From: an uncultured Candidatus Binatia bacterium
GTDB lineage: Bacteria > Desulfobacterota > Binatia > Bin18
NCBI GenBank assembly: GCA_965200125.1
Contig: OZ241332.1
Coordinates: 2,830,438-2,894,437, forward strand
Direction of reading: 5' to 3'
Length of the DNA stretch: 64,000 nt
The translations under genes were made by a program, and so were the position numbers. This document shows positions 7,905-62,896 of this stretch, one piece after another (the stretch's first letter is position 1; every line of letters begins with the position of its first letter). The notes below the pieces were generated by a model that saw only the letters and a program-made list of their open reading frames with translations, searched no databases and was not told the DNA's origin.

Positions 7905-8193
7905 AGACCGGACCTCGAGCCTGTCGAAAAGGGTGTGGGATCACCTCGTCTGTAATTCCCATTAAAATCCCTCCCCGAAGGGAGAGGGGTGAGCAGAGGG
8001 GCTGCCACCGTGGCATGGATATCTGATTCCGCCGGCCCCCTCGTCGCCCCGGCGAAAGCCGGGGTCTAGGGGAAAGGTGTCCTCTGGATTCCGGCTTTCG
8101 CCGGAATGACGAAGGGGGCTGGACAGGGGCGGAAGGACAGAGGGGTATGACGAGGAAAAATCGTCTTCGGGATCGTCTTGTATATAATTCCCC
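7905..8193. mobile_element. Compound MITE-like repeat: solo right-end fragment 7905-7951 plus a copy sharing about 170 bp at >95% identity with 47405-47576. Ends in TIR gggatcgtcttgtatataattccc.
   Basis: Direct sequence comparison with the other copies in the window. Confidence 0.6.
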
Positions 8194-8245
8194 ATCGAAT
8201 CGTCCGAGAACTCCGAACCGAGCTACGCTCCTTTACGCGGCGGGT

Positions 8246-8274
8246 TTGCCTGTTCCGTCCGCTTTGCGTATAGT
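8246..8274 (+). promoter_or_regulatory. Putative sigma70-type promoter TTGCCT-N17-TATAGT just upstream of the trp leader.
   Basis: Hexamers read in the sequence. The predicted TSS sits about at the leader ATG, so the leader would be nearly leaderless. Confidence 0.3.
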
Positions 8275-8280
8275 CATCGC

Positions 8281-8343
8281 ATGCTGAATCGTCCGCACAG
8301 GGCCGCCGCGACGAACCGCCGGAACTGGTGGTGGCTGCCGTAA
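8281..8343 (+). CDS. trpL: Tryptophan operon leader peptide MLNRPHRAAATNRRNWWWLP (three consecutive Trp codons, then stop).
   Basis: ATG...TGG TGG TGG CTG CCG TAA read in frame. Located 148 bp upstream of the fused anthranilate synthase gene. Confidence 0.55.
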   Translation: MLNRPHRAAATNRRNWWWLP

Positions 8344-8380
8344 CGGGCGGCCGGCACGTCGGACGACGACGCCAACACGG

Positions 8381-8412
8381 AGCCGCCTTGGTCACGAGGC
8401 GGCTTTTCTTTT
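8381..8412 (+). terminator. trp attenuator: intrinsic terminator hairpin agccgcc-ttggtcacga-ggcggct followed by tttctttt.
   Basis: Perfect 7-bp GC-rich stem plus a T-tract. An upstream ggcggc segment can form an alternative antiterminator pairing. Confidence 0.55.
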
Positions 8413-8490
8413 GCCTGGCCGCCTCCCAGCCGAGGTTCCAGCCTGCACCGAGCGGGCTCGGCTCCCCGAACGGAGGAGACGGTAACTACC

Positions 8491-61336: not shown

Positions 61337-61627
61337 GGGGTCCCTCCTTCGAGTCGGCTGGTTGCGGCGTTGCGGGGCGACGTGCCCGTGCCGCCCGCGG
61401 ACAATAGGAAGTTTCCCCCGGCTTTTCAATCTTGCGCCGGTGCCTTATCCGCTCCCCTTTTTCCCGGTGGGAAAGGGCTAGAGCCTGCCCCGGACGTGAT
61501 CCGGGGGAGAGGGGTATAGGAAACGACTTCCATCGGATCACGTCCATTGGAGCCGGAGGATTGTCTTCCTGGAATTCTTCTTGCTCGGGAGATAAGGAAA
61601 TTCGTGGACAACGAAACGCAAACTTCA

Positions 61628-61766
61628 GGAATTCCATACAAGACGATCCTCGATCCTTCCCCGGCTTCCTTGCCGTGCTTCCCCGGTCAGAACCCCTTCG
61701 CGAGCTGAGGATCAATCCCGTCGAGCTTGTCGAAACGGGTGCGGGATCATCTTGTATGCAACCCCC
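61628..61766. mobile_element. MITE-like element, 139 bp, TIRs ggaattccatacaagacgatcc / gggatcatcttgtatgcaaccccc, internal gagcttgtcgaaacggg.
   Basis: Same family as 49442-49611 and 62758-62896. Confidence 0.65.
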
Positions 61767-61830
61767 ACCTGAAAACTTGTCTTCGCCGGGGAGAATGGGG
61801 TAATCGAGCTTCAAGGGAAGGAGGACGACC

Positions 61831-62592
61831 ATGGCGACATTCGACGAATACAAGGACGCCTATCAACACGTGAAGATGGAGCGCCGCGACGGCATCCTGC
61901 AACTCGCCCTGCATACGGAGGGGAAGACCCTGCGCTGGGGAGAAGGGCCGCACGCCGAGCTCGGGCGCTGCTTCTACGACGTGGGAAGCGATCCGGAGAA
62001 CAAGGCGGTCATCATCACTGGCACGGACGACATGTTCATCGCCAAATACGCGCGCGGCTCGCAGTGGGACATGTCGGCGCAGACCTGGGACCACATCTAT
62101 TGGGATGCCAAGAAGCTGCTGATGAACCACCTGGACATCGAAGTCCCGATGATCGCCGCGGTCAACGGCCCGGCCACGATCCACGCCGAACTGGCGGTGC
62201 TGTGCGACATCGTCCTCGCCTCGGATGACGCGGTGTTTCAGGACGCGCCGCACTTTCCCAACGGCATCGTGCCGGGCGACGGCGTGCACATCGTGTGGCC
62301 GCTGCTGCTGGGCGCGAATCGCGGCCGCTACTTTCTGCTGACCGGCCAGAAGCTGTCCGTCCGCGAAGCTCTCGACCTCGGCGTGGTCAACGAAGTCCTG
62401 CCGCGCGACAAACTGTTGGAGCGTGCCTGGGAATTGGCCGAGACCGTGGCGAAACAACCGCCCCTGACGGTGCGTTACGCCCGGGTCGCGGTGACCCAGC
62501 AACTCAAGCGGCTGATGCTCGACAACCTGGGCTACGGCTTGGCCCTGGAAGGGCTGGGCGCCCAGGACTATTGGCCCGGTGGGAAGAAGTAA
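61831..62592 (+). CDS. Enoyl-CoA hydratase/isomerase (crotonase) family protein.
   Basis: Crotonase fold motifs. GGAAGGAGGA RBS. Confidence 0.9.
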
Positions 62593-62595
62593 GGG

Positions 62596-62745
62596 AAGTA
62601 CACACAAGGGGATCTAGGGAACCGTTTCGACACCCTTCGACAAGCTCAGGGACGGGGCTCAAGGCACCGCAGGCTCAACGAACTTGGGGAGGGACAGCTC
62701 CCTGAGCCCGTCGAAGGGCTCTTGGTCGGGAGGAGCATGGCAGGT
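62596..62745. repeat. Internal-type copy of the repeat family (ccgtttcgac...cttcgacaagctc...caggctcaacgaac...), without TIRs.
   Basis: Motifs shared with 1767-1850, 49520-49590 and 61690-61740. Confidence 0.45.
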
Positions 62746-62757
62746 AGGACAGGGAAA

Positions 62758-62896
62758 GGGAATTGTGTACAAGATGACCCTAGAACTCTGACTGACTTTC
62801 ATCCGTATCCTTTAGTTCAAAACCCTTTGGCAGGCTCAAGGATCAGCCCGTTGAGCTTGTCGAAACGGGCCAAGGATCGTCTTGTATGTAATTCCC
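62758..62896. mobile_element. MITE-like element, 139 bp, TIRs gggaattgtgtacaagatgaccc / ggatcgtcttgtatgtaattccc.
   Basis: Same architecture and length as 61628-61766. Confidence 0.65.

Follow-up and report, generated by a model that had tools for sequence, protein, structure and literature searches.

Miniature inverted-repeat elements with 8-bp target duplications in an uncultured Binatia genome and their probable mobilisation by an IS1595-family transposase

A stretch of 64,000 nt from the genome of an uncultured Candidatus Binatia bacterium (assembly GCA_965200125.1, contig OZ241332.1, positions 2,830,438 to 2,894,437; hereafter the window) carries several short non-coding repeats with inverted termini, which an earlier note on this DNA had described as a family resembling miniature inverted-repeat transposable elements (MITEs). 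We conclude with good confidence that these repeats belong to a genome-wide MITE family that was moved in trans by a transposase of the IS1595 family of insertion sequences (IS), that inserted at 8-bp WWWSSWWW sites, and that was orphaned when the transposase decayed. The copies have common ends, an 8-bp target duplication and a dispersed distribution, and a sister species differs from this genome in which sites are occupied. Both genomes contain an IS1595 transposase pseudogene, and intact IS1595 elements of relatives have the outer part of the same ends.

Results

Termini, genome-wide census and target duplications

Matches were counted against controls consisting of the shuffled window (100 times), the reversed window and the reversed genome. 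The terminus pattern GGGAATTACATACAAGANGATCC matched nine times in the window when up to 3 mismatches were allowed, and never in 100 shuffles. Two types of end were distinguished, and both occur on the copy at 47338-47576. Type A consists of GGGAATTAYATAC followed by AAGAnGATCC and forms the right end of that copy (…ACAAGGCGATCC); type B consists of GGGAATTAYATAC followed by TTGAAGATCC and is seen as its left end (…ACTTGAAGATCC). When both types were allowed up to 7 mismatches, the window yielded 14 termini and its reversed version none, and six complete copies were delimited. The family with inverted termini described in the earlier note is therefore real.

The genome that holds the window (G000) is a single contig of 4,127,328 bp with 64.9% G+C. 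With both end types it contained 200, 357 and 441 termini at up to 3, 5 and 6 mismatches, respectively, against 0, 0 and 2 in the reversed genome. The 23-nt termini occurred in all 200-kb bins of the chromosome, which shows that the copies are not the product of a local duplication. Complete elements were defined as adjacent, inward-facing pairs of ends less than 700 bp apart. There were 112 of them, 54-446 bp in length and without coding capacity for a transposase; they sum to 25.3 kb with 58% G+C, and 217 solo ends remain. Type A ends were paired in 72 of the complete elements, the two types were combined (AB or BA) in 38, and only two had a pair of type B ends. Clustering of the first 77 complete pairs gave a small class of about 140-170 bp (S subtype), a very variable large class of 154-360 bp (L subtype) and a third class of 352-446 bp.

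The target-site duplication is exactly 8 bp, as judged with controls for length and register. Among the first 77 pairs, left and right flanks were identical in 13 cases at k=8, in one at k=7 and in none at k=9, and shifting the register by 1-2 bases left 0-1 matches. Considering all 112 pairs, 16 had an exact 8-bp duplication, 35 had one within 1 mismatch and 49 within 2; when the left and right flanks were taken from different elements, only 2 of 112 matched within 2 mismatches. Positions 1-3 and 6-8 of the duplicated octamers were 73-92% A/T and positions 4-5 were G+C-rich, giving the palindromic consensus WWWSSWWW in a genome with 35% A+T.

The intergenic placement noticed in the window holds for most copies in the genome. 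Genes were predicted for the location tests by a crude caller that uses third-codon-position G+C content, and 87% of the complete copies overlapped predicted genes by less than 10%, compared with 24% of random placements. The terminal inverted repeats (TIRs) with 23-nt ends, the fixed length of the duplication, the many dispersed copies, their intergenic location, and the filled and single-target empty sites seen against the sister species (below) together identify the family as MITEs.

Copies in the window

The window contains six two-ended units, three one-ended units and one claimed copy without any end. The coordinates given in the earlier note were correct to within a few bases, except that the copy said to start at 49442 starts at 49448 and the one placed at 59585-59790 lies at 59572-59720; the stretch after 59720 up to 59790 is a different hairpin repeat.

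The complete copy at 47338-47576 (239 bp, L subtype) lies between two identical octamers, AAAAATAA, at 47330-47337 and 47577-47584, which form a perfect 8-bp duplication. Next to it lies a complete degenerate copy of 130 bp (47589-47718) with 5-6 mismatches per TIR. The complete 164-bp copy at 49448-49611 retains a decayed duplication (TTTTATTG / TTTCATTT) in which six of the eight positions are equal. Both ends were also found for a degenerate complete copy of 149 bp at 59572-59720. Two further complete copies are of the S subtype: one of 140 bp, without a clear duplication, at 61627-61766 in the divergent region between the amidohydrolase and enoyl-CoA hydratase genes, and one of 139 bp at 62758-62896, which has a perfect right TIR and folds into a long hairpin (z = -6.4).

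The one-ended units were among the items that the earlier note had called compound or degenerate. The repeats are indeed present; some are degenerate complete copies, and others are solo ends or unrelated neighbouring hairpin repeats. The truncated or compound copy at 62593-62745 has a left terminus with 5 mismatches followed by hairpin modules; its right terminus was looked for and none was found. A solo right-end fragment of the S subtype occupies 7917-7960, shortly 3' of the stop codon at 7886-7888. The right part of an L-type copy at 8036-8192 comprises paired hairpins and a right TIR with 1 mismatch (8170-8192), and no left terminus was found for it. The supposed fragment at 1640-1880 is not a MITE copy, as it consists of the hairpin-module repeats GGCAGGCTCAAG and GAGCCTGTCGAAGG alone and has no terminus at all.

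The observation that copies abut start and stop codons was upheld. The left end at 62593 begins at the base directly 3' of the stop codon of the enoyl-CoA hydratase gene, the copy at 47589-47718 stops 6 bp upstream of the ribosome-binding site (RBS) of a short-chain dehydrogenase/reductase (SDR) gene with its ATG at 47741, and the copy at 59572-59720 lies 8 bp upstream of the RBS of an amidase gene (58105-59550, minus strand). Two minus-strand genes, the antitoxin gene relB (49614-49886; Pfam RelB, 3e-13) and the toxin gene yafQ (49136-49408; Pfam YafQ_toxin, 2e-32), are separated by the copy at 49448-49611. Both open reading frames (ORFs) are intact, and the gap between them measures 205 bp because the 164-bp MITE sits in it. 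This toxin-antitoxin pair is flanked by two SDR paralogues (47741-48502 and 50014-50775), which are 2,273 bp apart and 72-84% identical at the DNA level.

Filled and empty sites in a sister species

The family was found in one of 30 relatives, the sister species G013 of the same genus, whose syntenic DNA is about 89-91% identical to that of G000. G013 contained 206 termini at up to 3 mismatches, with none in the control. In a survey of 401 genomes of the class, high copy numbers of the full 23-nt end were confined to G000 (185 copies) and G013 (176 copies).

Empty sites were sought by placing the flanking sequences of G013 copies on the G000 genome. At least four clean ones were recovered, where an octamer present in duplicate in G013 occurs just once in G000 (loci L010, L014, L016 and L017). 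One of them lies in the window: at 37141-37148 G000 has the empty target TTCTTTTT (L010), and G013 carries there a 138-bp MITE between TTCTTTTT and TTCTTTAT. The octamers at L014 and L016 are CATCGTTT and AAAGACAG. In the reverse direction, the copy at 47338-47576 is absent from the orthologous site of G013. Other copies are shared by the two genomes, namely those at 49448-49611, where the relB / MITE / yafQ arrangement is common to both, at 59572-59720, and at G013 locus L002, which corresponds to G000 1919889-1920028. The occurrence of both shared and private copies indicates that movement took place before and after the split of the two species. At the site of 47589-47718, the G013 MITE has orthologous ends and a different, S-type interior; the G013 equivalent of 61627-61766 has undergone a deletion or rearrangement.

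The copies are old. Pairwise identity among S-type copies was 34-89%, with a mean of 62% including indels, and no near-identical pair was found among them. Three of the shared copies were 69-76% identical between G000 and G013, including those at 49448-49611 (76%, against 88% for the neighbouring relB gene) and 59572-59720 (69%); a fourth was 94% identical, with flanks of 80-91%. The divergence of the shared copies is thus mostly above that of neighbouring genes, which fits mostly neutral decay.

The window sequence is also present in sponge and marine metagenomes. Contigs from four other metagenome runs on window 44001-64000 broke at the repeats, where depth rose about a hundred-fold, and none of these contigs had a joint that skipped exactly one MITE. 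The G013 locus L007 contains a 366-bp insertion (8175-8540, equivalent to window 52288-52298), which does not belong to the MITE family and may hold a small gene.

Relationship to IS1595 elements

The earlier note had considered the elements non-autonomous on the ground that the window lacks a transposase, and this can be extended, since no intact cognate was found in the window or in the rest of the genome. Pairs of ends 700-4000 bp apart exist in G000, none of them with a duplication, and no autonomous element with the same ends was found in G000 or G013. Large multi-copy segments of G000 were considered as insertion sequences and rejected, as they code for giant repeat proteins. Multi-copy segments of this kind, 5-7 kb long, adjoin a 3.6-kb segment (G000 2827697-2831268) that includes window 1-831 and is duplicated with 95% identity at G000 1620553-1624120.

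A search with the IS1595 DDE domain returned a single weak match in each of G000 and G013. Both matches are pseudogenes with in-frame stops and frameshifts that keep the typical N-terminal zinc-ribbon region, and neither genome contains a functional cognate transposase. The remnant in G000 (913659-914310) was the sole tblastn match when an intact relative was used as the query. Some 1.5 kb downstream of it, beyond a small ORF conserved in related elements, is a sequence resembling an end, and its last 12 nt are those of the MITE end.

Transposases of the IS1595 family are common in the class (64 of 151 genomes). Element boundaries in the fetched loci were set from inverted repeats and duplications. 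Two clades of IS1595 transposases occur in the relatives, and the end type differs between them. In one clade the ends of the elements start with GGGAATTAYATAC, and perfect 8-bp duplications were found around L069 in G146 (3,661 bp; TCCGAGGA), L063 in G043 (1,979 bp; AAAAGATA), L071 in G011 (TTGTAAAG) and L074 in G007 (CAATATTA). The transposases of L063 and L069 have the domains Zn_ribbon_IS1595 and DDE_Tnp_IS1595 (Pfam E = 4e-39 and 9e-40). It is to this clade that the pseudogenes of G000 and G013 are nearest, with summed blastx scores of 209-266 compared with at most 107 for the other clade. Another 21 bounded elements came from a metagenome scan, and the 8-bp duplication was perfect in 20. 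Among them L235, the best, is 2,879 bp long and encodes an intact transposase of 316 aa. Its outer 17 nt agree with type B at all 17 positions; the outer end of L069 agrees with type A at 15 of 15 positions and that of L063 at 15 of 16. IS1595-clade elements also have a small conserved ORF (…GRP…P.RI…PE.I……PKK…) that separates the transposase gene from the right end, as at L037 3003-3188 (G000 915597-915782) and L063 490-699, which had no Pfam match.

Members of the IS1595 family typically have 8-bp duplications on either side (PMC8101967). The MITEs have such a duplication and ends that start with GG, and their outer 13-17 nt, not all 23, are common to intact elements with the zinc-ribbon and DDE domains. 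The search for a cognate IS by means of the TIRs, as proposed earlier, thus pointed to IS1595 as the parent family. The outer 13-17 nt may represent the recognition and cleavage site of the clade, in which case the exact cognate IS would be extinct or unsampled.

According to the explanation that we prefer, an element would consist of two 23-nt ends around a non-coding interior of hairpin modules. An IS1595-family DDE transposase, supplied in trans, would bind the ends and either cut the element out or copy it, and insertion would follow at an 8-bp staggered cut in an A+T-rich WWWSSWWW site. Such sites would be nearly confined to intergenic DNA in a genome of 65% G+C. The family would have expanded in the common ancestor of G000 and G013 and continued to move in both after they split. 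The transposase gene presumably decayed in both lineages, and the copies would therefore be orphaned, drifting and probably immobile at present.

Several observations weigh against this explanation. No transposase-encoding element with the full 23-nt end was found, and the inner 6-10 nt of the end (…GAnGATCC) were matched only by low-copy, transposase-less elements of two congeners, some of which carry tnpB. The right end associated with the G000 pseudogene departs from the MITE end after 12 nt. The interiors of the MITEs have no similarity to those of the insertion sequences, so descent by internal deletion is unsupported. In addition, a recognisable duplication is left in only about 44% of the complete copies.

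Full-length ends on other cargo

The two congeners are G078 and G007, in which the full 23-nt end is present at low copy number (14 and 11 copies, respectively) and bounds transposase-less elements of 0.2-3 kb. Those of G078 include a MITE of 221 bp (L070) and a 1.9-kb element without recognisable domains (L068). G007 has TnpB cassettes of 1.2 kb (L105 500-1758, L106 499-1726 and L109 1678-3477) with the Pfam domains OrfB_IS605, Cas12f1-like TNB and HTH_OrfB_IS605 and no transposase. A 2023 study described TnpB genes within DDE transposons that have inverted ends (Altae-Tran et al., PMC10691335); its main text does not name IS1595. The G007 cassettes, bounded by the 23-nt ends of the MITEs, follow this known design.

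It is rather unlikely that the MITEs are cut-down versions of such transposase-less cargo cassettes, for example of the tnpB cassettes, instead of an IS with a transposase gene; they would still be moved by IS1595 enzymes. The full end including GATCC is found on L105, L106 and L109 of G007 and on L068, L070 and L104 of G078, none of which encodes an IS1595 DDE domain, and the 8-bp duplication of one composite in L109, AAAAAATT, is perfect. However, no tnpB homologue was found in G000, no clear duplication was seen around L105 or L106, and the similarity of the MITEs to cassettes, as to IS elements, stops 23-40 nt from the termini.

Interiors and hairpin modules

The internal boxes that the earlier note had regarded as a feature of the family turned out to be independent hairpin repeats. 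Module 1 is a stem with the loop TGAGCYTGTCGAA and occurs in 619 copies in G000, compared with 1 in the control. Complete MITEs contain 104 of these loops, and 275 lie within 250 bp of any terminus; examples in the window are at 62620-62730, 1750-1840 and 49530-49590. Module 2 is the hairpin ATTCCGGC…GCCGGAAT (…GTCATTCC(C/G)G…(C/G)GGAATCC…), with 119 copies in G000 and none in the control. Complete MITEs hold 45 of the 119, and examples are found at 47368-47400, 47471-47503, 8080-8112 and 59600-59660. Word depth over the bin of module 2 in other metagenomes was about 100 times the baseline. S-type copies have two inverted copies of the loop motif, which can pair with each other. Among the 43 complete copies of the L subtype (120-445 bp), modules have been gained and lost.

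An exact 17-mer of module 1 was present at more than 118 loci of GTDB genomes from many phyla, and some genomes have two or three copies in a span of a few hundred bases. Only the clustered loci count as evidence, because about 70 chance matches are expected in 596 Gb by our own estimate. No name for the motif was found in Rfam or the searchable literature, and a search with the loop sequence returned unrelated primer matches only. At gathering thresholds, Rfam matched tRNA only and nothing in the elements. The hairpin modules are the less understood part of the MITE family. It seems to us unlikely that they are a structured element in its own right, so far without a name and either mobile or functional, which inserts into MITEs or is captured by them so that the MITE ends are a mere vehicle; if it were true, G000 would be well suited to finding what spreads them.

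Two other repeats were noted in the window. A hairpin repeat, CCCTCCCCC-TTGA-GGGGGAGGG, adjoins MITE copies (17660-17694, 59721-59775 and 7965-8000). An inverted pair of units starting with GTAGGTCGGATTAGCC and resembling repetitive extragenic palindromic (REP) elements lies at 52311-52395, is conserved in G013 and coincides with a strong depth spike in run X13.

Possible regulatory role

The copies could in principle be kept by selection as regulatory elements, that is, as small RNAs, terminators, promoters or mRNA-stabilising hairpins. They lie against start and stop codons, their folding is strong (z = -3 to -8), and the shared copy that is 94% identical between the species exceeds its flanks of 80-91%. 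We nevertheless consider such a role very unlikely. Any unit with TIRs must fold, so the TIRs alone account for the folding. The other shared copies are less similar (69-76%) than the adjoining relB gene at 88%. Scans for promoters and terminators detected nothing inside the MITEs above shuffled sequences, and there was no Rfam match. The crude gene calls place the copies roughly uniformly within intergenic regions and give stop-facing distances of 30 bp or less in 24 of 92 cases. A positional bias toward stop codons was considered and not upheld, since relative positions look uniform. The closeness of the window copies to genes probably reflects the rarity of A+T-rich octamers elsewhere in G000.

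Discussion

An 8-bp duplication is not unique to IS1595 among IS families, and the mover could have belonged to another DDE family with duplications of this length, such as ISL3, IS256, IS6 or IS66. This is highly improbable, because domain searches for these transposases gave no match in G000 or G013 while the control genomes matched, and because the ends match those of IS1595-clade elements.

REP elements and bacterial interspersed mosaic elements (BIMEs) lack both a TIR and a duplication and rely on REP-associated tyrosine transposase (RAYT) enzymes. Least probable of all is that the family consists of mosaic hairpin repeats like these, or like the Neisseria intergenic mosaic elements (NIMEs), and owes its spread to a Y1 (RAYT) enzyme or to recombination: module mosaics are commoner outside the MITEs (104 of 619 loops are inside complete copies), lengths are very variable, interiors differ at one site common to G000 and G013, and G000 has one weak Y1_Tnp match (RAYT-like; G000:C1:1121427-1121768), but REP elements and BIMEs are not characterised by defined 23-nt TIRs, an 8-bp duplication of fixed length or clean empty sites, and G013 has the MITEs without any Y1_Tnp match. 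For the TIR-bounded units this explanation is largely refuted; for the hairpin modules themselves it may hold. The Correia elements of Neisseria duplicate TA, and a Correia-like element was rejected as the duplication here is 8 bp. Like Correia elements, NIMEs, REP elements and BIMEs, the present elements are abundant intergenic repeats with modular, hairpin-rich interiors that often abut genes; unlike them, they have ends and an 8-bp footprint that point to a DDE transposase.

A closer counterpart is a MITE of Haloquadratum walsbyi that has been assigned to ISHwa6 as an IS1595 derivative, with a length of 165 bp, inverted repeats of 25, direct repeats of 8 and seven copies (PMC3852290). Both families are small and non-coding and have TIRs of about 23-25 nt starting with GG, an 8-bp duplication and many copies. 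The family described here differs in belonging to another phylum, in its end sequence and in its number of complete copies (about 110 compared with seven). It also has two end types, three size classes, interior modules that occur free-standing, and no intact partner in the genome. The IS1595 family comprises the groups ISPna2, ISH4, IS1016, IS1595, ISSod11, ISNwi1 and ISNha5, and some members carry passenger genes (Siguier et al. 2009, summarised in PMC8101967). The MITEs resemble this family in the 8-bp duplication and in the outer 13-17 nt that they share with congener elements bearing the zinc-ribbon and DDE domains; they differ from it in being non-coding and in the inner part of the end, which matches no transposase-encoding member found. 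As judged from these sequence comparisons, mobilisation in trans by a transposase of the IS1595 clade would account for the family.

Bacterial MITEs, including those derived from IS1595, are already well known, and the understanding of them is unchanged by this family. The family accounts for much of the unusual intergenic DNA of an uncultured, sponge-associated lineage, and its more than 300 ends and about 25 kb of complete copies merit masking or labelling in annotation. The copies break short-read assemblies of related strains, and one of them splits the relB-yafQ toxin-antitoxin operon. They can serve as markers for dating events between the two sister species. The family would also represent a case in which an IS1595-clade transposon has become extinct in a genome while its non-autonomous offspring persist.

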